Shown here in pieces: positions 4,201 to 40,034 of a stretch of 64,000 bases of DNA. The position numbers and the translations under genes were made by a program. The notes beneath the pieces are model-generated. The model saw nothing but the letters and a program-made list of their open reading frames with translations. It was not told the origin of the DNA and did not search any database. This DNA comes from Candidatus Melainabacteria bacterium (GTDB lineage: Bacteria; Cyanobacteriota; Vampirovibrionia; Obscuribacterales; Obscuribacteraceae). The stretch covers positions 6,549 to 70,548 of the forward strand of contig JACRFZ010000037.1 of NCBI GenBank assembly GCA_016212515.1. The letters run 5' to 3'. The number at the start of each line of letters is the position of its first letter. The stretch's first letter is position 1.

Positions 4201-4233
4201 TTGACCAAAAGTGTTTTGAAAGAGGAAACAAGC

Positions 4234-5844
4234 ATGACTAACATCAAGACTAAAGCCCAGAACCCAGAAGCAGTAGTATTCTCTACTTCCGGTCAAATCG
4301 GATACCTGTTCAAGGCTGTAGAGGCCGGCACAATGACCATTGCCCTCCCGGGTCAAAACCCTCAACTTCTAGACCCTGAAGCCATCGTGCAATCTTATAA
4401 TCCTCTTGAACAGCGAGATCTAATCTCAATCACACGCGGAGTATACTCCAACGAAGAGGGCATCGCTCACGCAGCGAAAGAACTGAAAGGAAAGCGCGTG
4501 CTTTTGGCCGACAACAAGAAAAGTCGAGTCGGTACCATCAATCACATAGAAGGTAACGACACTGAGGGTCACAAGATCTTCCTGGCAGTTGAAGGCTCCG
4601 TAGCCGTTATCAATGCCCGTGATGTAATCGAACTGGAGGAGAGGCCACAGGACTTCTTCATTACGGTTCAGACTCTCGATAGCGGTGAGTTCATCTTCTG
4701 GCTCAAAGACTTCGTCAAAGTCGATGTATCCTATACTCTCGCTGCAAAACGGGTAAGAATCTCCGCTACTGTCTGTTCCATCATCGACCCTGAAATTATC
4801 TTCACAGCCAATAAGGTAATGATCACAGATCAAGATCTCAGCTGTGTAGATGACCTCGAGGGTCTTGAACGCTACGAGATCGCCTGCGGTGAAGTGAGAC
4901 TCTCCCCCGAGCAGACAGGATTCAATCTCTATTCAGCACCACTTAGCAAACTAGAGGAAATCACGAGCCTGTCCTTCAATGGATTCTTCTACAAATCCGG
5001 CAGGCAGGGCATCGAGTTTACGAAATCAAGAACCTTCATCTTGACCGCCAGAGAGCCTGAAAACTTCAGCGCCGCTCTTAAGAACATGAGGGGACGAGCG
5101 GCTTTCGAAGGTAAGACCTACCAGGTTCACAACACAGAAATCTCTCAATCCGATGGACTCTGGTTAATCAACACTGACTCAAAGCAGCTCATCTATGGCG
5201 ATTCCGACTGGAGTGCGCGGAGTGATGAAACAGCGGTTCCCGTTCTGAGAAATGCCAGCGAATCGGCCCGGTTGGAACTCGTCACCTACACCGACAAATT
5301 GAGAAAGCTCACGATCTACGCCAGTAAACTGGGTCTTGAAGCAGGACAGACTGTGCTTGCAACAGGATTACCAGACTCACTCAACGAAATCTGCTGCAAC
5401 AGATCAGCAATCCCGGTGGAAAATGGCGTAGCTCGCTTCAGTGTCGATAATTCATCCTCCAGTGTCGAATTCCTGAATAAGGAAAGCGGAATCAGCAATA
5501 CGAAATGGCATACTAGCTACGCACTCATCGATGATTCAGGCGCAATCGACTACCACAGCCTCTCTCGCCTCCCTGCTCAGATCTTACAAGACTTGGCGAA
5601 AACGTTTCTTCTGCGCTTCAACGACAGCTGGCAAATATACTTGCGCAAAACGGAACCTAAACGCGATCTTCTGCAGCGCCTTGTGCACTCAGAGACGAAA
5701 TACACAAATCATCTAGCTGTCTTACGGCTTGTCAAATCCGGACAACTGGACGAGATTGAGGAAGCCACGGAGGACTTGCGGGAACCGGCAGAGCAACTGC
5801 TCGAAGCCATCAAAAGCACGGTGACGGAGGTCTGGACAGCCTGA
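4234..5844 (+). CDS. Hypothetical protein (536 aa)
   Basis: Long ORF. ATG 4234 is preceded by AGAGGAAA. No motif recognised. Confidence 0.6.
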   Translation: MTNIKTKAQNPEAVVFSTSGQIGYLFKAVEAGTMTIALPGQNPQLLDPEAIVQSYNPLEQRDLISITRGVYSNEEGIAHAAKELKGKRVLLADNKKSRVGTINHIEGNDTEGHKIFLAVEGSVAVINARDVIELEERPQDFFITVQTLDSGEFIFWLKDFVKVDVSYTLAAKRVRISATVCSIIDPEIIFTANKVMITDQDLSCVDDLEGLERYEIACGEVRLSPEQTGFNLYSAPLSKLEEITSLSFNGFFYKSGRQGIEFTKSRTFILTAREPENFSAALKNMRGRAAFEGKTYQVHNTEISQSDGLWLINTDSKQLIYGDSDWSARSDETAVPVLRNASESARLELVTYTDKLRKLTIYASKLGLEAGQTVLATGLPDSLNEICCNRSAIPVENGVARFSVDNSSSSVEFLNKESGISNTKWHTSYALIDDSGAIDYHSLSRLPAQILQDLAKTFLLRFNDSWQIYLRKTEPKRDLLQRLVHSETKYTNHLAVLRLVKSGQLDEIEEATEDLREPAEQLLEAIKSTVTEVWTA

Positions 5845-5888
5845 AATCCCGAGCCCCTAGCCACCCCTTGCACTCCCCTGAAAACCCT

Positions 5889-5909
5889 GGGCTCCTCAGC
5901 CCTTTTTTT
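5889..5909 (+). terminator. Short GC hairpin plus T7
   Basis: GGGCT-cctc-AGCCC followed by TTTTTTT (5903-5909), 45 nt after the stop at 5844. Confidence 0.55.
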
Positions 5910-5960
5910 GGCCCATAATAGTCGACCGGTCTATTACTCATCCTCAAAAAAAGAAGAAGG
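5903..5960. repeat. GACCGGTC-core intergenic repeat, copy A
   Basis: T7 (5903-5909), then N14, GACCGGTC (5924-5931), N14, A7 (5946-5952) and GAAGAAGG. It lies between convergent genes ending at 5844 (+) and 6118 (-). Confidence 0.85.
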
Positions 5961-6117
5961 CAGCCGGCCTGTTAGTTCAGTGCCAGCCACCCCTTACTAA
6001 TTTCCTAAATGCAACCGTTCCGGCTCCTTCAATGAGCGACAGCCAGGAATGGTCACCAACCTCCGGAAGAGCCTTGAGCAGACTCGAACACAGAGGCGGT
6101 GACCACAGGAAGCAACT

Positions 6118-8448
6118 CTAGGAGGCAGCGTTGTAGGTGAAGACCAGCTTCCCTTCCGCACCGCCAACCCCAGGCTCGCCATCAACGAAGATGGTGCCGC
6201 CGCTACCAGACTCTGCTTTCAAAAGCTCTACGGAAAGAGGATCTTCCAACAAGTCGGTGATAGCGCGCTGCATTTCGCGGGCGCCAAACTTGACACTGTA
6301 ACCACGCTCGATTAATACATTACGGGCTGAAGCGGAGAGAGTAAGTGTGAAACCATACTCTTCGGCAACCACCGTGACCAGATCGGCGAGCAACAGGTCG
6401 ATGATTTGATAGACCTCGCTCTTCAGTAACTGACTGAAGACGATAATCTCAGAGAGGCGGTTGAGGAACTCAGGACGGAAGTACTGCTGTAAAGCAGCCA
6501 TGACTTTGGCTTTGATTACCTCGTATTGCTTTTCTGCAACAGCCTTCTCATCAGGCTTACCAAGGTCGAAGCCGAGACCGGAGGACTCTGCCTTGCCCAT
6601 AATCGCCAATGACCCCACATTAGTGGTCATGATGATGATCGTATTCTTGAAGTCCACGGTCCGACCCTGGGCATCAGTGAGACGTCCGTCGTCCAGAAGT
6701 TGCAGCAAGGTATTGAAGACGTCGGGATGAGCCTTTTCAATCTCATCAAAGAGGACCACGCTGTAAGGACGACGACGCACGGCGTTGGTCAATTGTCCGC
6801 CTTCGTCATAGCCGACATAGCCGGGAGGGGAGCCAATCAGCTTGCTCACCGTGTGGCGCTCCATATATTCCGACATATCCAGGCGAATCATATTCTCTTC
6901 GCTGCCGAACATAAACTTGGCCAGCAGCTTAGCGAGCCAGGTCTTACCTACCCCGGTGGGACCGGCGAAAATGAAGCTGGCAATCGGCTTGGAACTGCGT
7001 CGCAGGTTGGCTCCGCTACGGCGCATAGCCTTAGCCACAGAGGTGACGGCAGCGTCCTGACCAATGATGCCCTGGTGAAGAATATCCTCAAGGTGTAGCA
7101 GCTTTTCTTTCTCGCTTTGTGTCAGCTTGGAAGCCGGCACACCGGTGATTCGCGACACGGTTTCAGCCACAGCGGCTTCATCCAGCACCAGAGGCGCCTC
7201 ATCCGCACCATCGACCACACCCATACGCAAGTGAGAACCAGCCTGGTCAATAATGTCCAAGTCTTTATCTGGGTGGAAGCGGTCGCTGATGTAACGATCT
7301 GAGAGTTTCACCGCCAGCGCCAGTGCTTCATCTTGAATGACTACGCCGTGGTGCTTCTCGTAAGAATCCTTCAGTGCCCGCAGAATCTCAAGAGTCTGCT
7401 CACTGGTCGGCGCTTCAATTACTACCGGTTGAAAACGACGAGCCAGCGCGGGATCTTTCTCGATGCGTTTGCGGTACTCATCAAGAGTTGTGGTACCAAT
7501 CAAACTGAGTTCCCCACGGGAGAGCGGTGTTTTGAGCATACTGCTCATATCTACGCTACCCTCTGAGGAGCCAGCGCCCATGACGGCATGGATTTCATCG
7601 ATAGCGAGAAGGATGTTGCCGGTCTTGATCACCTCGGCAATAACGCCTTTGACGCGCTCTTCAAATTCACCGCGGAATTTGGTACCGGCAACAAGCGCAC
7701 CGATATCCAGGGTCCGGAGTTCCTTATTGCGCAGGGGCTTGGGTACATTACCAGCCACAATGCGCTGAGCCAGTCCTTCAAGAAGCGCGGTTTTACCGAC
7801 ACCGGCTTCCCCAACGATGACAGGGTTGTTCTTTTGAAGCAGCCCGAGAATATCGATCATGCGCACAATCTCGGCATCACGCCCGTGAACGGGACGCAGT
7901 TTGCCTTGACGGGCCTGTTCAGTCAAGTTAACAGTGTAGGAATCCAAGGCGGGAGTGCGCACGGCTGCGCCCTTGGAATGGTTGTTAGAAACAGTGTTGT
8001 CAGCCATTTCACTTGCCTTTGCTCTTAATTTAGACAGATCAACCCCAAGTCTCACAAGGAGCTTAGACCCGGAGTTTGTGGGGTCGGAGAGAACCCCAAG
8101 TAAAATGTGTTCAGCCCCAATCAACTCGCGGCCCTGTTGCTTGGCCATGTTCGAGGCTTGCTGCAGAGCCTGCTTGGAGAAGGCACCTAATTCGACGCGA
8201 GCTTCAGAGCCCGGACGATACTTTCCAATCGATGAAGAGGCAGAATCGGCAGGCGGGGAAATTGCCACCTCTACTTTTCGGTAGTCACTAATGAAAGCAA
8301 GAATGGCGCGAGCGGCAGCAGAAGTACGTTCTAGGACAATACCATAGACAATGTCGTCCGTATCGACGTTGGAACGTCCCCGTCTTTCCGCGCTTTTCTT
8401 GGCGAATTCGAGCGCATCGAGAGCGCTTTGAGTAAAACGTTCAGCCAT
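6118..8448 (-). CDS. Two-ring Clp/Hsp100 AAA+ ATPase, ClpA/ClpC type
   Basis: N-terminal Clp_N-like repeats are present. D1 has GEAGVGKTAL and LLAIDEIH. D2 has GPTGVGKTWLAK and VVLFDEIEKAH. There is no long ClpB-type middle coiled coil. A GLGF loop is a plausible ClpP-docking tripeptide. ATG 8448 has GAGG upstream. Confidence 0.9.
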   Translation of the reverse strand: MAERFTQSALDALEFAKKSAERRGRSNVDTDDIVYGIVLERTSAAARAILAFISDYRKVEVAISPPADSASSSIGKYRPGSEARVELGAFSKQALQQASNMAKQQGRELIGAEHILLGVLSDPTNSGSKLLVRLGVDLSKLRAKASEMADNTVSNNHSKGAAVRTPALDSYTVNLTEQARQGKLRPVHGRDAEIVRMIDILGLLQKNNPVIVGEAGVGKTALLEGLAQRIVAGNVPKPLRNKELRTLDIGALVAGTKFRGEFEERVKGVIAEVIKTGNILLAIDEIHAVMGAGSSEGSVDMSSMLKTPLSRGELSLIGTTTLDEYRKRIEKDPALARRFQPVVIEAPTSEQTLEILRALKDSYEKHHGVVIQDEALALAVKLSDRYISDRFHPDKDLDIIDQAGSHLRMGVVDGADEAPLVLDEAAVAETVSRITGVPASKLTQSEKEKLLHLEDILHQGIIGQDAAVTSVAKAMRRSGANLRRSSKPIASFIFAGPTGVGKTWLAKLLAKFMFGSEENMIRLDMSEYMERHTVSKLIGSPPGYVGYDEGGQLTNAVRRRPYSVVLFDEIEKAHPDVFNTLLQLLDDGRLTDAQGRTVDFKNTIIIMTTNVGSLAIMGKAESSGLGFDLGKPDEKAVAEKQYEVIKAKVMAALQQYFRPEFLNRLSEIIVFSQLLKSEVYQIIDLLLADLVTVVAEEYGFTLTLSASARNVLIERGYSVKFGAREMQRAITDLLEDPLSVELLKAESGSGGTIFVDGEPGVGGAEGKLVFTYNAAS

Positions 8449-8571
8449 AATGACCTCGGTGGAAACAATAAATGGATAAAGAAAAATCACCGGAAGCCAG
8501 AGGCAACCGGCTAACTGCTAAAACCCTGACAGGGCATTGGGGTCATCACCCAAGAGCCCTGGGTTCAGGTG

Positions 8572-9243
8572 TCAGGCTTGGAATTTGATCAAATCCGGCG
8601 AAGGCGGGTTCTTTCCGGCCACATTGGCAACCATGATGATCAGGAAGGTAAGGGCGCGATTGCGCAATAGGAAGAGCGCTTCACTGCTCCCGGCTTGTGC
8701 GATACTCGCTTCATCACCGGAAAGGAAAGCCTTGATCAGTGCCACACCATTGGTTAGACGCAGACCAAGTTGCTTGACTTCAGCGTAGTCGCTCAAGTTG
8801 TAGCAAAAGTGCCGCAAAGCTCTCTCTTGTTCGGTGGCCTCCTTAAGCGGTTCAGGTTCTTCTCCAAGCTCGACGGCACGTGCATAGGCCAGGGGTGCCA
8901 GAGGATCAAGCTCTGAGCCGTAGTATTGCTTTAACGCAGCGTCTAACTGTCGATAGACCTGCGTAGCAGTATCTACGCTAGCGCCCTCAAGAGAAAGATC
9001 GCAAATGGAGAGAGCGGTCTGAGCGCCGGCTTTTACTTCCACTTCATCGATATTCTCAAGCTGAAAGAGCAGAACTTCTTGCTCCTGGCTCACCTGCTCT
9101 TGCACGACCAGTAAAGCCTCTTCCATGAGCGGTAAAAGCTCCTCCAGATCGACTGCCATGCCCTTGAAGAAGCGATAATAGCCCTCAAGCGCAGTCTTGG
9201 CTTGTTTAACGATCTGATCCCGTGACAAAAAGTCGAGATCCAT
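8572..9243 (-). CDS. Hypothetical acidic, probably helical protein (223 aa)
   Basis: ORF with GGAGG 8 nt upstream of the ATG. It lies co-directionally between the propeller-like gene and the Clp ATPase. Confidence 0.6.
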   Translation of the reverse strand: MDLDFLSRDQIVKQAKTALEGYYRFFKGMAVDLEELLPLMEEALLVVQEQVSQEQEVLLFQLENIDEVEVKAGAQTALSICDLSLEGASVDTATQVYRQLDAALKQYYGSELDPLAPLAYARAVELGEEPEPLKEATEQERALRHFCYNLSDYAEVKQLGLRLTNGVALIKAFLSGDEASIAQAGSSEALFLLRNRALTFLIIMVANVAGKNPPSPDLIKFQA

Positions 9244-12954: not shown

Positions 12955-14184
12955 TTGACCATAAGTTTCAATAGAAACCGTTCTGACAATCTCTTACTGC
13001 GAAATCTAGAAAACCGCTTACACAGACTCGATACCTTCGCCCCCCTGGGCGGGCCTTATGTAATGCACAATGGCCGTTCCCTTATATCCTTCGCCAGCCA
13101 CGACTGGTTGGGTCTGTCCTCTCATCCATGCTTAAAAGAAAATGCCATCAAGTTCGTAACCAGATACGGTGTGAGCAATGCATCCTCACACCTGACAGAG
13201 GGTAACATCGACGGTTATGACAGAGTCGAGAAAAAGCTGGCAGCCTTGACCGGCTTTGAAACAGCCCTGCTCTTTCCCAGCGAAGAACGGCTGCAGGAAG
13301 TTCTCTTTATGCAACTTTTCTCCAATAGATCAGTTGTTGCCGTTGATAGATTGATGCCCAGAGCCATGGTGGAAACTCTCTCAAAAACATCGGCTAAGTG
13401 GTTCAGCTACAGGCATTCTCAGCACGAGGACGCAAGAGTGAGGCTGGGTGCGGAAAGATACGACGACTGTCAGGACAAATGGATTCTAGCCCAGTCCCTT
13501 TACAGCCTGGACGGTTCCGTGGAAAGCATTCCAGCCATCGAGAAAATGCACAAAACTTTCGGAATCAGTGTCTTACTTGACGACTCTAACGCTTCAGGAG
13601 TGTTGGGAGTAAACGGCTTGGGTCTGGCTTCATTCATTTCCAAAGACGGACTGGCCTTTGGCAGTTTCGGAAGAGGACTGGGAAGTGCAGGAGCCTATCT
13701 ACTTTGCTCCAGAGCCATCAAGAGTTTCCTGACAAACTGCTGCCCGGCAAGTATCTATACGGCACCAATCCAACCGGCAGTTCTCGGAGCTATCGATGCG
13801 GCGCTTGATATAGTTCCCGGCATGCAAAAGGAACGACTAAAGCTTTTGCAAATGGCCGAGGACTTTCGCAAGGTGGTACTAAGGATGGGCTTTGAAACAG
13901 GACCATCCTCCACTCAAATAATCTCCATACTGGTCGGTACAGATGCTCAAGCAATAAGAATTGCGGAACATCTCTATGACAACGGTATTTTTGCAGCCCC
14001 CATCAGACCGACCAATATCGCCGAGGGCAATGCCAGATTGAAGATATGCATTTCCTTAAAACACGAAAAAGAACACATATTCAGACTGCTTCGCTGTCTC
14101 TCTAATTTCAGATCCAATGGTAGCAAACCGCTTTCCGCCCAGGAAAAACAACAAGAAGAAACCATAAGAAAGCCTTCAGCCTAG
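12955..14184 (+). CDS. alpha-Oxoamine synthase (BioF/Kbl/SPT) family homolog lacking the PLP-binding lysine; probable pseudoenzyme
   Basis: It is collinear with E. coli BioF (SFASHDWLGLSSHP / NFSSNDYLGLSHHP). Where BioF has TFGKGFGVSGA this protein has SFGRGLGSAGA. DDAHGTG has become DDSNASG, and DRLSHAS has become DRLMPRA. The TTG start has AAGGAG 6 nt upstream. Confidence 0.8.
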   Translation: MTISFNRNRSDNLLLRNLENRLHRLDTFAPLGGPYVMHNGRSLISFASHDWLGLSSHPCLKENAIKFVTRYGVSNASSHLTEGNIDGYDRVEKKLAALTGFETALLFPSEERLQEVLFMQLFSNRSVVAVDRLMPRAMVETLSKTSAKWFSYRHSQHEDARVRLGAERYDDCQDKWILAQSLYSLDGSVESIPAIEKMHKTFGISVLLDDSNASGVLGVNGLGLASFISKDGLAFGSFGRGLGSAGAYLLCSRAIKSFLTNCCPASIYTAPIQPAVLGAIDAALDIVPGMQKERLKLLQMAEDFRKVVLRMGFETGPSSTQIISILVGTDAQAIRIAEHLYDNGIFAAPIRPTNIAEGNARLKICISLKHEKEHIFRLLRCLSNFRSNGSKPLSAQEKQQEETIRKPSA

Positions 14185-14187
14185 ACC

Positions 14188-14220
14188 GACCGGTCAATTC
14201 CAGCCTCAAAAAAAAGAGAA
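14188..14220. repeat. GACCGGTC-core intergenic repeat, copy E (right half only)
   Basis: cTAGACC-GACCGGTC (14188-14195), N12, A8, GAGAAAG. The stop codon of the upstream gene lies inside the element. Confidence 0.75.
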
Positions 14221-14289: not shown

Positions 14290-15840
14290 CTAGTTCGAGC
14301 TATTCAGGCGGCTATGTTTGAAACCGTAAGCCAGATAAATAAGCAACCCGACTAGCAGTGCCACACCATAGAGCATCCACACCTGAGCGCCGAGGCTCAG
14401 CATCATGACGATACTGATAAGTGCTCCCAGAGCGGGAACCGCCGGCATCAGAGGACAACGGAAGGTACGACTGGCATCTGGGGCCAGATAGCGCAACACA
14501 ATCACACCGATGCAAACTGCTACAAAAGCAGCCATCACACCAATGTTTACCAAACCGGCAAGAGTACCAATTGGGAAAAGTCCGGAGGCAAGGGCGCTGA
14601 ACAAGCCAACGACGGTGATAGCTACGTAGGGAGTGTGGTGCTTGTGACTGACAGCACCGATTTTGGGGGGCAGCAGTCGATCCCGACTCATACTCATGAT
14701 GATCCGAGATTGGGCGTAAAGCATGACATTGAGAGTGCTCTCAATAGAAATCAATACCCCCAGAGAAAAGACACTGACCAACCAACCGTAACCTACTTTA
14801 CGCAGAACGAAAGCCAGCGGTGCATCGGCCCCAAGTTCCGCATAAGGCACTGCAGCCACCATAGTCAGACCGACCAGAATATATAACACAGTGCAGACAG
14901 CCAGACTATAAATAATGGCGCGAGGCATAGACTTCTCCGGCTGCCGGCACTCATCACCCATAGTGGTAATGGAATCGAAACCTATGTAAGCGAAGAAAAT
15001 GGTACCGGCACCGGAAATAATGCCCAGTGGACCAAAAGGCATTAGAGGTTCAAGATTGGCGGTATTAAAAGAACCTGCCGTCAAGACTATGAAGCCAATT
15101 ACCAGAGCAGTCTCAATAACACTCAAAAATGTAGTGAAGCGGACGCTCTCTTTCACTCCATGGTATAGGTGCAAGCTAATTAGCGCGATGGCGGCCACGG
15201 CCACTAGGTTGATCGATGTAACCAGAGGCAGAGCTATAGCCAGTTTAAAAGCTCCAAAGGCAGCCAGAGGCACCCATAAGAAGCTTAACAATCCGCCACT
15301 GCGACCGAGCCAGTGCATGACCAGACCAGCAGCAAGAGAGCCCGCACCAAGCATAATCGCCGCTCCAACATCGTGGGCCGGCGCCTGGCTGAGCCAGGTA
15401 GGCAGAATGATACCAGTCGGTCGGAGAAGCTCCTCCAGATAATCTGATAGAGCCACCGCCACCGCACTGGATCCGACTGCGTAAGCCACAAGCACACTCC
15501 AGCCCATAAGAAAGGCGATTACCTCACCCATGGTGTGGTAGGCATACTCGTAAACAGAACCAGCCGAGGGCAGCATGCCCGCAAGTTCGGCATAGGCCAG
15601 AGCAACGCAAGCACAAGCCAGACCGGAAAGCGAGAAACTCAACCAGATGCCGGGACCGGCATGAGCCGAGGCAACCGTACCGACCAACACAAAGATACCG
15701 GCACCAATAATAGCGGCGATACCGTTCATGGTCAGATCGAAGGTACCGAGCACCCGCTTGAGAGGAGGTCCGTCATGTACAACCAGCGCAGAACCTAGAG
15801 TCTTACGCCGAAAAGCGGCCGAAAACTTTGGAATTTTCAT
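14290..15840 (-). CDS. APC-superfamily amino-acid permease
   Basis: About 12 predicted hydrophobic helices. The N-terminal 'LKRVLGTFDLTMNGIAAIIGAGIFVLVG' is typical of amino-acid/polyamine transporters. Confidence 0.85.
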   Translation of the reverse strand: MKIPKFSAAFRRKTLGSALVVHDGPPLKRVLGTFDLTMNGIAAIIGAGIFVLVGTVASAHAGPGIWLSFSLSGLACACVALAYAELAGMLPSAGSVYEYAYHTMGEVIAFLMGWSVLVAYAVGSSAVAVALSDYLEELLRPTGIILPTWLSQAPAHDVGAAIMLGAGSLAAGLVMHWLGRSGGLLSFLWVPLAAFGAFKLAIALPLVTSINLVAVAAIALISLHLYHGVKESVRFTTFLSVIETALVIGFIVLTAGSFNTANLEPLMPFGPLGIISGAGTIFFAYIGFDSITTMGDECRQPEKSMPRAIIYSLAVCTVLYILVGLTMVAAVPYAELGADAPLAFVLRKVGYGWLVSVFSLGVLISIESTLNVMLYAQSRIIMSMSRDRLLPPKIGAVSHKHHTPYVAITVVGLFSALASGLFPIGTLAGLVNIGVMAAFVAVCIGVIVLRYLAPDASRTFRCPLMPAVPALGALISIVMMLSLGAQVWMLYGVALLVGLLIYLAYGFKHSRLNSSN

Positions 15841-30878: not shown

Positions 30879-30927
30879 AAAGCGGCTTATGAGGGGAAAA
30901 CTGCCTATTTCATCAGCCGCTTTTTTT
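30879..30927 (+). terminator. Hairpin plus T7
   Basis: AAAGCGGCT (30879-30887) pairs with AGCCGCTTT (30915-30923) around a large 27-nt loop. The T run is at 30921-30927. Confidence 0.55.
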
Positions 30928-30978
30928 GCCGGGCACTAGTCGACCGGTCTATTTCTTTCTTCTAAAAAAAGAAGAGCG
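30921..30978. repeat. GACCGGTC-core intergenic repeat, copy B
   Basis: T7 (30921-30927), N14, GACCGGTC (30942-30949), N14, A7 (30964-30970), GAAGAGCG. The spacing is identical to copy A. Confidence 0.85.
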
Positions 30979-31026
30979 AACCGATGGCAGTCTCTAAAGA
31001 CCTACATCAGTCCGCTCGTCCTTAAG

Positions 31027-32604
31027 TTAGGCGGAAGGAGCGGAGAAATGCTCATCCCACTTTTGCACCCATTCATCGCGCAGGATGGTCTCACGCTCAA
31101 GAAGGAAGGGCACCATTACCTCATTGATGAAGCTACGCATCTCAGGCGTATTGAGGATGGACTCGGCCCGCTCCCGACACTCATCAAGAATCTTCTTGAT
31201 CTCGCGATCGATCTGATTAGAACTTTCGACACCAAGTCCGTAACCCTGTTCGGTAGCCATAGCTCGACCCAAGAAGGGATCTTGCTCATCGGCACCGATG
31301 GAAATAGGGCCAAGACCGCTCATGCCCCAGCGCGTCACCATCTTCTTCACGATCTGATAAGCCCGTTTGAAGTCGTTGTCGGCACCGGTGGAAGTGGTAG
31401 ACAGAAAGACATGCTCGGCCCGATTCCCGGCCAAAGCGAGAGTAACCTGTCCCAATAACTGTTCTTTCGTGTAGAAACTACGATCGTCCTCAGGAATGGT
31501 GGCAGTGTAGCCACCGGCACCACCGGCTCCGATGATGGTGACCTTAGAAACTGGATCGCCCCAGAGCTTGTTCCAACCGGCATTCTGCCGAAACAAAGCT
31601 TCGCTGACACAGGCATGACCCAGTTCATGGTAGGCAATCAAACGCTTCACCGCTTCAGATTGACGTCTTGACTTGCTTTCATTGGAGCCACCCAACTGCA
31701 GGGCCCAGACGGCACGATCCAGGTCGGCTTGAGTTATGGCTTCCGCTTTCTCATCACGGCGCACAGCGCTCATAGGAGCGTGCACCTTCATGATCGCCTC
31801 CAGGTCGGCGCCGCTACTACCGGCGGTGTGGCGTGCCACCACTTCCAGATCAACATCGTCTGCAAGTTTAAGCTTACCGGCATAAAGGCGAAGAATCTCC
31901 AATCGCCCCTGTTTGTCCGGTAAATTCACAGTCACACTGAAATCACCAAAACGACCGGGGCGCAAAATAGCGGGATCAAGCTTGTCAGGGCGGTTGGTGG
32001 CGGCCATGACAATCACCCCTTCTCGACCATCAAAACCGTCCAGTTCAGTCAGTAGCTGGTTGATGGTCTGCTCCCGCTCATCGTTAGAAAAGCCTATTCC
32101 GGCGCCGCGATGTTGGGCCACCGCATCAATCTCATCAATGAAGAGAATACAGGGAGCACTCTCCCGCACAGCCTTAAATAGTTCTCGCACCCGGGCGGCT
32201 CCCACTCCTACAAACATCTCCACAAACTCGGAAGCAGAAATGTAGAAGAAGGGAACACCGGCCTCTCCCGCGACGGCTTTAGCCAAAAGGGTCTTACCGG
32301 TTCCGGGAGGTCCCACCAGCAAAATACCACTGGGCACTTTCCCACCGAGCGCCACGAGCGTACCGGCGTTCGACAGGCAACCGACGAAACGTTGCATATC
32401 TTCTTTTACTTCATCAAGACCGGCCACATCAGCAAATGTGACCTTACCATCCTCAGGCTTGAAGCGCTTATGCCGGCCGTTTCGACTGTCTGTGATGCGG
32501 CTTTGCTGCCGCATGTTCTTCAACCCCATGATGAGGAAGGCAAACAACAGCGCATAAAACGTGAGTTGCACGAAGATACCAATCAATGCAGAATATTTTT
32601 CCAT
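31027..32604 (-). CDS. FtsH-family AAA+ zinc metalloprotease paralog with a single N-terminal TM helix and no periplasmic domain
   Basis: GPPGTGKTLLAKAVAGEAGVPFFYISASEFVEMFVGVGAARVRELF, ATNRPDKLDPAILRPGRFG and the HELGHA zinc motif are present. It is about 526 aa with one hydrophobic segment (YSALIGIFVQLTFYALLFAFLIMGL). The start is uncertain (32604 or 32640). Confidence 0.88.
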   Translation of the reverse strand: MEKYSALIGIFVQLTFYALLFAFLIMGLKNMRQQSRITDSRNGRHKRFKPEDGKVTFADVAGLDEVKEDMQRFVGCLSNAGTLVALGGKVPSGILLVGPPGTGKTLLAKAVAGEAGVPFFYISASEFVEMFVGVGAARVRELFKAVRESAPCILFIDEIDAVAQHRGAGIGFSNDEREQTINQLLTELDGFDGREGVIVMAATNRPDKLDPAILRPGRFGDFSVTVNLPDKQGRLEILRLYAGKLKLADDVDLEVVARHTAGSSGADLEAIMKVHAPMSAVRRDEKAEAITQADLDRAVWALQLGGSNESKSRRQSEAVKRLIAYHELGHACVSEALFRQNAGWNKLWGDPVSKVTIIGAGGAGGYTATIPEDDRSFYTKEQLLGQVTLALAGNRAEHVFLSTTSTGADNDFKRAYQIVKKMVTRWGMSGLGPISIGADEQDPFLGRAMATEQGYGLGVESSNQIDREIKKILDECRERAESILNTPEMRSFINEVMVPFLLERETILRDEWVQKWDEHFSAPSA

Positions 32605-32727
32605 GGCTTTATAAGAGTTAAAGAGTGTACAAGTGAGCATCAAGAAGGTATCCAGGACGGGACGCAAGAGATGGTGCCGAGCCTGGATACGAGTATGCTA
32701 GATTAGCCTCAAATGGCAATAGCCGAA

Positions 32728-35559: not shown

Positions 35560-35957
35560 GAGACTATGTCCCCAAGAATAATAATAATCGAGAAGAAAAT
35601 TAACGCACTTGGGGTGTCGTTTAGAGACTGCTGCAAGGGTGACTAAAGAGTATCTCGAGTGGACGTGACAAGTACATACCAGACAAGCAAGATGACCGGA
35701 GTGGTTAAGAGAGAAGGGATGGCGCCTGCAACTATTTCGATTTGTTGGAAAACCCGTTAGAAAAATGGAGGACAGTAACTTGAGAGATTTCATTATGGAA
35801 GCTCATGATGCTTATTTCCAGAAGCATTATGGGCAACTACCGACTCTGGTCCTTAATCGCCGCTCAACTGCAGTACCCCGGATAATTCAGCTTGCGCAAT
35901 CAGACAAGAATGTAAACAGGAGGAAAGCGCCGAGGAGCTGGCAGCCCATTACACGCC

Positions 35958-35998
35958 GACCGGTCTACTATTCTCACTCCAAAGAAAAAGAAGAAAAG
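35958..35998. repeat. GACCGGTC-core intergenic repeat, copy C (right half)
   Basis: GCC-GACCGGTC (35958-35965)-TACTATTCTCACTCCAAAGAAAAAGAAGAAAAG. It is 99-139 nt downstream of the minus-strand stop at 36097. Confidence 0.75.
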
Positions 35999-38210: not shown

Positions 38211-40034
38211 CTAGCTGCCGGTCAGAGCTTCAAGGTCCATATCTTTGATGGAAGTGACAGCTAAATCAGCACTACCTCCGATGAACTCAATTTGCACACT
38301 GTCGCCGACTTGCATGAGCGGTAAGTCGCGGCTGACTTTCAGGGTTGCGGTAAAGGGCTTACTTTGACCGGTCAGCAAAACATGGAAAGTGGATTCACCT
38401 TGCTCTACCGACAAACCTAGCCGCACAATCTGACCAGAAGCCTTCTGCAACTGAGCTAATTGAGAGATCTCAGCAGCCGATAGACCACCTCCGCTGGCCA
38501 GATAGCTGGCATAGCGCGAAAGTGCAGTGTTCATGTCCGGCGCCATAATTACGTTGGCACCATTCAAATGCCGGGCGTCCACCAGGCCGACTGCAGCAAA
38601 AGATTGTCCGTGGCTGCCCTGCGCCTGCGTATAAACACCAACCCAGGTCGGCACTGAGTTAATCGAGTACAACTGTACCGCATCGATAGGGAAGGAACGA
38701 ATATTACTGGCAGCATTCTGAAATGTGTGGGTGACATTCTCGCCTACACCAAGTCCGCTCAAGCCCGGATAGAAGATACCTTTGTTATCGCGGGTGTCAT
38801 AGAGAATCACACCGGTAGAACTGGCATTCGATGACTGATGGGAACGCATGGGAATGAGCCAAACCGGAATATCGGAGTTGTTATAGACCAATTCCGGGGT
38901 CTCAGGAGTCATCTGATACTGTCCGGCAAAGTTAGGCCATTGATTGCGGCTATCAGCAGATGACCAAAGTCCCCACTGAAACACACGATCAGTGACCAGG
39001 CTGCTTGAAAAGACTCGGTCTAACCAGGCGGGAGCCTGACCCGGCTCATATTCAACAATATTGCCGGAGGTGGCATCGACTACCAGGATTTTCTTAACCA
39101 CGGTACCTGTAACACCAAACTGAGGGGTTAGCACCGCTGCTGTGAAATGAGGATGGAAGTCCTCGTCAATCTCGAAGGTCGGTTTATCTAACATAGTGTA
39201 ACCATATTGATAAACATGGCGATAGAGATTCTGCTGGAAAAAAGCACCAGGTAGATATCGCAAGGGCGCGCTGCTAACAATTCGAGCATCGGCATTGGGG
39301 TTCTCCGCATCCACAAGCACATAGCCGGGGCTAGCCTCGATCTTCTTGCTAAAGATTCCGAACTGGCTCAAAGGGTTAGCATATTCAAGCGGAGCAGCGT
39401 AATACAAATGACCTGCAATTGACTGACGAACCCATTCCTCGGGTCTCAATAAGAACAGAGAGCCAAGATTGTCACCGACACTGTTGAGAGCTTGCTGCCC
39501 AAGATATTGAGCAATATCGGGTGTAACTAGAACAATGTTCTTGGTGTCGGTCTCGGGCAGCTTGTCTTCCGGGCTGGCCACTTCAATATTTGCCAGAGCG
39601 GCAAATTTCTCAGCCTTGTCGGCGCCCCAGGTAACAGCGGCTGTGTTGACAGTCCAGAGCGAACACTCTGCTAATAGAATGATCAGAGCGGCACAGATAA
39701 GGGCAAAACCTGAATTAGAGTCCTCTTCAAGTTGACTGGCGATGAAGCCGGCCAACCCAACATATATAGTCAGCGCGAAAACAGTCCAGCCCTGACCAAA
39801 GAGAAAACCTTCTTGCACAGGCAGAAAGAAATAGAAGACCAGGAAGTTATAGGCGAGACTACTGGGTATTGTCCACGCGAGGGCGCATCGGACAACGCCA
39901 TTCTTCTTGCTGGAGAGGGTGACAAGACCGACAACCAAAGCTGTCTCCAGAAGCGACCAACTGACTGTACTGGCTAGAAAACTGATCATCAGTGTAAAAA
40001 CTCCAAAAATAAATTGACTAGGGAAAGCCCCCAA
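38211..40034 (-). CDS. Large polytopic membrane protein with a ~430-aa extracytoplasmic domain; no family recognised
   Basis: About 5-6 N-terminal hydrophobic helices are followed by a long soluble region. The start is uncertain (TTG 40034 or ATG 39989). Confidence 0.65.
   Translation of the reverse strand: MGAFPSQFIFGVFTLMISFLASTVSWSLLETALVVGLVTLSSKKNGVVRCALAWTIPSSLAYNFLVFYFFLPVQEGFLFGQGWTVFALTIYVGLAGFIASQLEEDSNSGFALICAALIILLAECSLWTVNTAAVTWGADKAEKFAALANIEVASPEDKLPETDTKNIVLVTPDIAQYLGQQALNSVGDNLGSLFLLRPEEWVRQSIAGHLYYAAPLEYANPLSQFGIFSKKIEASPGYVLVDAENPNADARIVSSAPLRYLPGAFFQQNLYRHVYQYGYTMLDKPTFEIDEDFHPHFTAAVLTPQFGVTGTVVKKILVVDATSGNIVEYEPGQAPAWLDRVFSSSLVTDRVFQWGLWSSADSRNQWPNFAGQYQMTPETPELVYNNSDIPVWLIPMRSHQSSNASSTGVILYDTRDNKGIFYPGLSGLGVGENVTHTFQNAASNIRSFPIDAVQLYSINSVPTWVGVYTQAQGSHGQSFAAVGLVDARHLNGANVIMAPDMNTALSRYASYLASGGGLSAAEISQLAQLQKASGQIVRLGLSVEQGESTFHVLLTGQSKPFTATLKVSRDLPLMQVGDSVQIEFIGGSADLAVTSIKDMDLEALTGS

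Follow-up and report, generated by a model that had tools for sequence, protein, structure and literature searches.

The E. coli NemR box is TAGACC-n4-GGTCTA, and the regulons of NemR and of Thermus PfmR each consist of a handful of promoter-proximal sites, among which no terminator-flanked or strand-polar class has been described. The operator of R. sphaeroides AcuR, identified by experimental mutation, is TAATAGAC/n6/GTCTATTA and lies over the -35 element TTGATT and the -10 element TATTAT (PMC3017554). The Thermus TetR-family protein PfmR binds TACCGACCGGTCGG-like sites, and the sites of PfmR/TTHB023, pseudo-palindromes of 15-16 bp (e.g. CCTACCGACCGGTCGG) over core promoter elements of redox/fatty-acid-type genes, contain a CGACCGGTC-like core, as does the motif described here (PMC7022988). 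Proteins bound as roadblocks, such as LacI, CodY/CcpA and EcoRI*, stop RNA polymerase at a fixed distance upstream of their sites. For EcoRI(Q111), E. coli RNA polymerase is halted about 14 bp upstream of the site. The RefZ RBMs and RacA ram sites of B. subtilis and the SlmA SBS sites of E. coli are sets of tens of short GC-rich (pseudo)palindromes in one chromosomal domain, bound for a non-transcriptional purpose by a protein of transcription-factor fold; the ram sites (TGACGCCGGCGTCA) cluster near the origin, which in B. subtilis is also flanked by stringent arrest sites, and we know of no report of strict strand polarity or terminator flanks for the RefZ, RacA or SlmA sites. In Tus-Ter and RTP-Ter, asymmetric protein sites form two opposed groups relative to replication; these sites at the terminus are polar and need shelter from transcription, to whose invasion they are sensitive. 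REP/BIME elements, MITEs and HIP1, finally, are short extragenic repeats that contain palindromes and are often located at gene 3' ends.

The family of sites described here would share the traits just named with the roadblocks, the chromosomal-domain sites, the Ter sites and the extragenic repeats, respectively. It is unlike REP/BIME, MITEs and HIP1 in having about 30 copies and not hundreds, with similarity limited to an operator and T/A runs; unlike the known roadblocks, which are single regulatory cases, in being dispersed, built into terminator pairs and replication-polar; and unlike the Tus and RTP Ter sites, with which it has no sequence or protein similarity, in surrounding the origin and not the terminus.

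The window, i.e. the whole stretch of DNA analysed, comprises 64,000 nucleotides (contig C16, positions 6549-70548) of the source genome, G000, a Candidatus Melainabacteria bacterium represented by 6.1 Mb in 124 contigs. An earlier note on this DNA had described an intergenic repeat built on the 8-bp palindrome GACCGGTC, with copies A to E, and had counted four exact copies. Copies A, B, C and E were indeed located at the coordinates given there, and copy D (60550) reads GACCAGTC as it had been written, but a scan of the window gives five exact occurrences of GACCGGTC (5924, 14188, 30942, 35958 and 38366); the one overlooked, at 38366, carries none of the shared flank features. Shuffled windows contained a mean of 0.54 copies, and none of 100 shuffles reached five. 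Throughout the source genome GACCGGTC occurs 188 times versus 181 expected (Markov), mainly within genes, and it ranks 23 among the 8-bp palindromes, so that the intergenic enrichment supposed for the 8-mer fails genome-wide. The true repeated unit is not the 8-mer but the asymmetric 17-mer TAGNCGACCGGTCTAYT, derived by scoring both strands around those occurrences of GACCGGTC that share a longer motif; its arms TAGAC/GTCTA flank and overlap GACCGGTC. Using an nhmmer profile, we identified 33 sites in the source genome, none of them in any convincing gene (8 overlap short ORFs of 71-131 aa only) and all confined to 13 of the 124 contigs (0.92 Mb together), with the highest density on the lower-G+C contigs C16, C29, C47, C102 and C120. 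The reversed pattern, employed as the control for the motif search, gave 0-1 matches per genome. Copy E was not recovered by nhmmer at E<0.05. The proposal of a repeated intergenic element is upheld, the element being lineage-specific. The suggested likeness to HIP1 falls, since over-representation of the 8-mer is lacking and the members of the family, on 13 of 124 contigs, number only about 30.

The copies in the window (Table 1) belong to class T, a derived, genus-specific form of the site with about 30 copies, the remaining sites being the promoter-associated class P. Copies A, B and D are flanked on either side by hairpins of -8 to -31 kcal/mol that have the properties of intrinsic terminators, and the owners of the terminators in the window include the ClpC-like, FtsH-like and permease genes. 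In copy C the upstream side has a gene start and not a gene end, hence no T-run, and copy E possesses the A-run side only. A search of the window against Rfam matched no family, and a structured RNA was rejected: T-run and A-run could pair, but the arms between them are not complementary. The best matches of the ClpC-like protein are found in Gastranaerophilales, Chloroflexota and similar groups, at 40-54% identity; the organism probably belongs to Vampirovibrionia.

Table 1. Copies of the 17-mer in the window, with flanking terminators and one chance occurrence of the palindrome
Feature	Position	Strand	Remarks
Copy A, operator TAGTCGACCGGTCTATT	5919..5935	+	class T; palindrome 5924-5931
Copy A, left terminator, hairpin GGGCTcctcAGCCC and T7 (5903-5909)	5889..5909	+	serves gene 4201-5844(+); 14 nt from T-run end to palindrome
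Copy A, right terminator, hairpin (-26 kcal/mol), then TTCTTCTTTTTTT	5946..6006	-	ClpC-like gene 6118-8490(-); + strand A-run 5946-5952, starting 14 nt past palindrome
Copy B, operator TAGTCGACCGGTCTATT	30937..30953	+	class T; palindrome 30942-30949
Copy B, left terminator, hairpin (-17 kcal/mol) and T7 (30921-30927)	30882..30927	+	14 nt to palindrome
Copy B, right terminator, hairpin (-31 kcal/mol) and T-tract	30964..31024	-	FtsH-like gene 31027-32667(-); + strand A-run 30964-30970, 14 nt from palindrome
Copy C, operator ACGCCGACCGGTCTACT	35953..35969	+	palindrome 35958-35965; purine/A-rich tract from 35980 onward
Copy D, operator CCGTAGACCAGTCTATT, core GACCAGTC	60545..60561	+	T6 60530-60535 and A6 60572-60577, each 14 nt from core and backed by strong hairpins (-19 and -23 kcal/mol)
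Copy E, degenerate AGACCGACCGGTCAATT	14183..14199	+	overlaps stop codon of gene 12955-14184(+); A-run 14208-14215 with hairpin is the terminator of permease gene 14290-15840(-)
Chance GACCGGTC, not a family member	38366..38373	.	inside ORF 38211-40034(-) (607 aa)

The 17-mer is predicted, from sequence comparison, to be the operator of an AcuR-like TetR-family repressor. Class P sites, seen in at least five genomes, have the layout TTGACn-N4/5-TAGACGACCGGTC-TATTAT, a sigma-70-type promoter frame. Across the bacterial family they precede genes for AcuR-like TetR proteins and for reductases of the detoxification type. In the source genome, a TetR-family gene of 202 aa has two motif copies upstream, separated by about 330 bp, an arrangement kept in G001 (92% identity), and in G010, a member of another genus (50% identity), three copies in clear promoter frames (e.g. 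TTGACG-ATAC-TAGACGACCGGTC-TATTAT) stand upstream of the TetR gene. Of 19 genomes of the family, 17 encode the TetR subfamily (at least 39% identity), whereas none of 12 genomes from other groups does, and the 17-mer is confined to the same family, two of the TetR-carrying genomes having no match at up to one mismatch. Across the family there are one to three AcuR-like paralogues per genome, nearly all with the motif just upstream; it stands directly upstream of the acuR-like gene in G000 (C108:37107-37715 and C75:79992-80654), G001, G004, G010, G011, G014, G015 and G018. Both TetR paralogues of the source genome have AcuR (NF051457) as the best NCBIfam match, with 176 and 203 bits, below the equivalog cut-off of 247, and RefZ is among their weak matches. 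The class P targets of the source genome, i.e. an OYE/NamA-like plus MDR reductase, an NAD(P)H oxidoreductase, an SDR and the two repressor genes, would make up a set typical of electrophile/quinone detoxification. As in the AcuR system, the inverted repeat TAATAGAC/n/GTCTATTA of class P forms the -10 element TATTAT with its right arm, the -35 element is TTGAnn, and the site lies upstream of an autoregulated TetR gene beside reductase genes. The spacer is, however, 5 nt and not 6, with the extra palindrome GACCGGTC, the TetR proteins score under the AcuR cut-off, and class T sites stand not before genes but between terminators, in about 30 replication-polar copies. Among the options that the earlier note had offered, a reused protein-binding operator thus appears to be the best fitting one, given the match of the motif to what is probably the operator of an AcuR-like repressor. 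Integron attC sites, dif-like sites and DNA-uptake sequences were set aside, the motif being identical to the promoter-embedded operator and without their defining structures. As to individual class P loci, the site TAGACGACTGGTCTATT (at the locus C52:9913-10637 of the source genome) is kept in all members of the genus, and the NAD(P)H-oxidoreductase gene of about 720 bp that follows it in the source genome is absent at the orthologous position of G001 (C1:~1464700). Upstream of the TetR gene on C108 lie two small ORFs (C108:36572-37017; L013 3573-3821 and 3857-4018) of 82 aa (Asn, Thr, Gly-rich) and 53 aa (hydrophobic), each preceded by an operator copy, and this layout is present in G001 as well.

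For the analysis of class T, the 30 sites of the source genome other than the 3 class P sites were set in motif orientation and aligned. The consensus sequence, TTTTTTTG-N9-TAG(T/C)CGACCGGTCTAYT-N9/10-(C)AAAAAAAA, i.e. T7-N14-GACCGGTC-N14-A7, keeps the core and the right arm, position 4 being usually T or C, and its overall layout is hairpin-T7-N14-GACCGGTC-N14-A7-hairpin, with the operator midway between two intrinsic terminators standing face to face. Outside the T/A runs no sequence is conserved, but both sides carry strong hairpins, each of them unique. The gap from T-run to palindrome is exactly 14 nt in 15 of 24 sites, and the A-run starts 14 nt past the palindrome, or 16-17 nt past it in the AAGAAAAAA variants. 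An A-run is present on 18 of 23 gene-end sides versus 2 of 10 gene-start sides; since the A-runs track gene ends, the runs can be identified as T-tracts of terminators that belong to the adjacent genes. The conservation of the 3' flank, pointed out in the earlier note, is real, the A-run beginning 14 nt past the palindrome in mirror image of the T-run that ends 14 nt before it. That the copies are not terminators, also stated there, is right only in part: what recurs is an operator at a fixed distance between two terminators, but the shared 3' flank AAAAAAAGAAGA with its hairpin is the intrinsic terminator of the convergent gene, just as the T-run before the palindrome belongs to that of the other gene. 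On the five dense contigs, class T sites are found at 14 of 29 convergent junctions, at 5 of 147 tandem junctions and at none of 28 divergent ones; when C63 and C66 are added to give the seven copy-rich contigs, a copy adjoins 14 of their 34 gene ends that bear a terminator, versus 2 of 372 elsewhere. T/A runs facing each other without the motif were observed at 17 of 789 convergent junctions, with no preference in spacing. The region that holds class T appears variable and rich in paralogues and is lower in G+C.

All 33 sites of the source genome (30 class T and 3 class P), on 13 of 13 contigs, carry the forward motif on the strand with negative local GC skew, that is the lagging, C-rich strand (two-sided p ~2e-4 at the contig level); for class P sites overall, orientation is without replication polarity. 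In G001, a closed relative with a contig of 7.02 Mb, the GC skew of 20 sampled segments of 20 kb placed the origin in the interval 6.30-6.65 Mb, which includes dnaA (6.469 Mb), and the terminus near 3 Mb. Its class T sites, '+' at 6.07 and 6.33 Mb and '-' at 6.67-6.96 and 0.04-0.19 Mb, span about 16% of the chromosome, from about -0.4 to +0.74 Mb relative to dnaA, and their orientation flips at dnaA, so that the motif points toward the origin on both arms. The left arm holds only two or three class T sites, one site (6237464, at 6.237 Mb) runs against the polarity, and the vicinity of the terminus, which the skew puts at about 3 Mb, yielded no site. In G005, dnaA is at 124 kb on C4, with a '+' site on one side (99 kb) and a '-' site on the other (247 kb). 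Class T sites agree with the skew in 6 of 6 cases in G005 and in 3 of 3 in G002, and the exceptions in G004, C5:52962 and C5:99956, are class T-like sites without an A-run on the G-rich strand. As in Ter-type systems, the asymmetric sites thus form two opposed groups relative to fork direction, but they are arranged around dnaA and the origin, not around the terminus. The asymmetry of the motif, its strict orientation to replication and its clustering near the origin had all escaped the earlier note. A ParB_N-domain protein was found neither in G000 nor in G001 (the latter 99% complete), nor did canonical parS at up to one mismatch rise above control level in these two genomes. A parS/ParB centromere was ruled out as the identity of the element, the 16-bp TGTTNCACGTGAAACA being unrelated to the motif here and ParB_N not being found. 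With respect to base composition, AT skew is unusually strong, at +0.14 for the window and 0.08-0.18 for the 13 motif contigs, and it is the C-rich lagging strand that is enriched in A; GC skew is about 0.05, and the strand bias of genes relative to replication appears weak.

As the best explanation overall, which we hold at somewhat less than an even chance, we propose that class T is a repressor-bound, transcription-insulated boundary or roadblock between convergent genes. The repressor on its class T operator would act as a boundary shielded from transcription: with the active site of RNA polymerase on the last U of a terminator, its front edge, about 14 bp ahead, would meet the protein, and the bound protein would strengthen pausing and termination from both sides, so holding convergent polymerases 36-37 bp apart, while the fixed orientation would show every replication fork the same face of the asymmetric complex. 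The boundary would be conditional, because TetR repressors leave the DNA when ligand binds. The specific mechanism, the stopping of polymerase at the bound repressor from both sides, is a function that we infer with a slightly lower probability. As with known roadblocks and bidirectional terminators, the context is one of convergent genes, which need mutual insulation, and the 14-nt gap observed here matches the leading-edge distance of polymerase; if the edge of the protein is set by the 17-mer rather than by the 8-mer, however, the gap to the T-run is 9-10 nt and not 14. The distance between the two termination points of class T is 36-37 bp, and RNA polymerases that have collided head-on stand with 26-31 bp between their active sites (bioRxiv 10.64898/2026.04.06.716678). 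The outer inverted repeat is weakened by the non-A at position 4 of class T. Binding of the same repressor there is an assumption. The roadblock by itself predicts neither replication polarity nor clustering near the origin, and an extra assumption is needed for both; the only natural explanations for strict polarity are a function connected with replication and a way of copying that was specific to single strands. Three biofilm metatranscriptomes with a strain of about 96% identity gave sparse contigs, with mRNA of the clpC-like gene only, reaching 6003 (the extent of a contig, not a mapped end), and these contigs gave no coverage around copy D. Of the sequence words sampled from positions 5000-9000 of the window, 98% and 69% are present in the DNA runs X1 and X2, which represent groundwater or drinking-water communities rich in this organism.

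The 14-nt spacing alone fits a promoter frame equally well, and by spacing the roadblock and a promoter are inseparable. Class T sites could accordingly be orphan promoters under an AcuR-like repressor, with the start at the A-run and transcription directed toward the origin, giving either antisense RNA over the 3' end, with its terminator, of the leading-strand gene that converges on the site, or sense RNA that enters a tandem gene on the lagging strand, in which case electrophile stress would induce about 30 transcripts; we consider this a serious rival, though an unlikely one. The frame of class P is indeed kept, with at least 14 copies having a TTG in register where the T-run ends, an 18-bp spacer to the -10-like TAYTnn, and the A-run, a purine run, at the predicted +1; such a form is that of the real promoter overlapped by the R. 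sphaeroides AcuR operator (PMC3017554), and eight copies in tandem context lie 24-338 nt upstream of a co-oriented gene. The TTG is, however, unspecific, G following the T-run in 32 of 64 terminators of the source genome, and the -10 element is degraded when compared with class P, position 5 being rarely A and position 6 being T in about half. The bias toward convergent and away from tandem and divergent junctions is the reverse of that of promoters. Often just 58-110 nt separate a site from the convergent stop codon, a space occupied by the terminator of that gene, and inspection of the sequences after the A-runs found no consistent small ORF. Class P sites being unpolar, 30 of 30 promoters directed head-on would also stay unexplained.

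The replication polarity could be accounted for if class T were an old miniature mobile element of about 52 bp (TTTTTTTG...operator...CAAAAAAA) that spread via single-stranded DNA into terminators on the lagging-strand template, which fixed its orientation, the copies persisting where harmless or as terminator T-tracts or repressor decoys. Elements that act on single-stranded DNA are known by their strict strand polarity; examples are IS200/IS605, the terminator-targeting class C group II introns and integron attC sites. The ends of such an element would be the 8-bp inverted pair TTTTTTTG/CAAAAAAA. Sites are non-orthologous between the more distant species of the genus, as had been proposed as a check on relatives: proteins encoded beside class T in G002, G004 and G005 are unrelated to the neighbours in G000, coding DNA beside class T gave no blastn match across the genus, only the element of about 55 bp matching, and the copy number varies by species (about 30, about 14 and 3-6). 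Neighbouring copies, moreover, share variants at positions 4 and 5, TAGTC on C16 and TAGCC on C47. Against this, no two copies are alike outside the core and the T/A runs, and pairwise identity equals the column expectation both at 19 inner spacer positions (32% mean, 63% maximum) and at 48 outer variable positions, so that recent copy-and-paste was rejected. The 11-nt core is near-invariant across class T, and an invariant core beside randomised spacers points to selection on binding and not to recent transposition. At G001 loci with an orthologue in the source genome the site is present in both genomes in every case, copy A is retained in related strains in four DNA metagenomes (with C>T at 5923 and no joints), and no empty site was found in these strains or at the shared loci. 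The whole-element similarity and the filled and empty alleles that characterise REP/BIME elements and MITEs are thus lacking, and the REP/MITE-like option of the earlier note fails with them. The T/A runs follow gene ends and so behave as the terminators of genes, not as ends of an element. Neither a RAYT link nor an associated transposase was noticed, and the 'master' copies flank the repressor gene. In view of these points we regard the mobile origin as rather improbable. The C>T change at 5923, observed in a drinking-water metagenome strain, is at position 5 of copy A and turns TAGTC into TAGTT, a variant also present in other copies of the genome.

To the same rather low degree we credit a third possibility, that an AcuR-like TetR repressor or a paralogue was co-opted, in a lineage without ParB/parS, for about 30 origin-flanking, transcription-shielded sites pointing to the origin, where, depending on orientation, it would serve as a barrier or a marker, be it for the replisome, for loop extrusion of the SMC type or for the positioning of the origin, and the terminators on either side would prevent transcription from stripping the complex. 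The invariable polarity in the source genome and the arrangement around dnaA in G001, and likewise in G005, agree with such a role, for which the lack of ParB_N and canonical parS in the two genomes searched leaves room; SlmA, and RefZ with its origin-flanking binding motifs, are precedents within the TetR family. The clustering may, however, just mirror the variable, paralogue-rich region in which the sites lie, the window itself having no close orthologue in G001; the left arm of G001 is poor in class T, two sites in G004 are exceptions, and a TetR survey of the genomes yielded no paralogue restricted to the class T-rich species. The region of the window is probably variable, paralogue-rich and origin-proximal: it has no G001 orthologue above 90% identity, other shared regions showing 92-97%, and its matches there are only paralogue-like, at about 65-71%. 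Genes similar to metB, lysC and hom have second copies elsewhere in the source genome (C92 and C62), and a clpP-like match adjoins the class T site at 6.957 Mb of G001.

An ordinary TetR regulon with many targets, in which terminator flanks and orientation were coincidental, is very improbable: many-target TetR regulators are known (PMC6790063) and class P sites behave exactly in this way, but the polarity across all 33 sites and 13 contigs, the exact N14 spacing on both sides, the enrichment at convergent junctions and the rarity of paired T/A runs without the motif all argue against it.

If class T sites are occupied, the operator of a small-molecule repressor would have been reused about 30 times for a job beyond gene switching, under three design rules that are rarely found together in bacteria, i.e. 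placement between terminators, confinement to the origin domain and strict orientation to replication. The boundary between convergent genes, if true, would represent a testable, protein-assisted and possibly ligand-conditional insulation. Alternatively, the sites could represent a novel type of polar element of the origin domain, in a phylum-level group, the non-photosynthetic relatives of cyanobacteria, that has no cultured genetics and no ParB-parS; they would then be a bacterial counterpart of polar boundary elements, maybe switchable by ligand. Even as mere relics of a strand-specific mobile element, the copies would still mark the direction of replication and the variable origin-proximal region.

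Three class T copies of G001, at C1:40718, 48115 and 49575, lie within 10 kb and have homologous flanks, namely a gene 3' end on the upstream side and a AGCAGGGTGCGTTCAAGCAAGCTCC stretch on the downstream side, which are found in metagenome contigs as well; the homology of these flanks shows a local duplication of the gene end together with the element.
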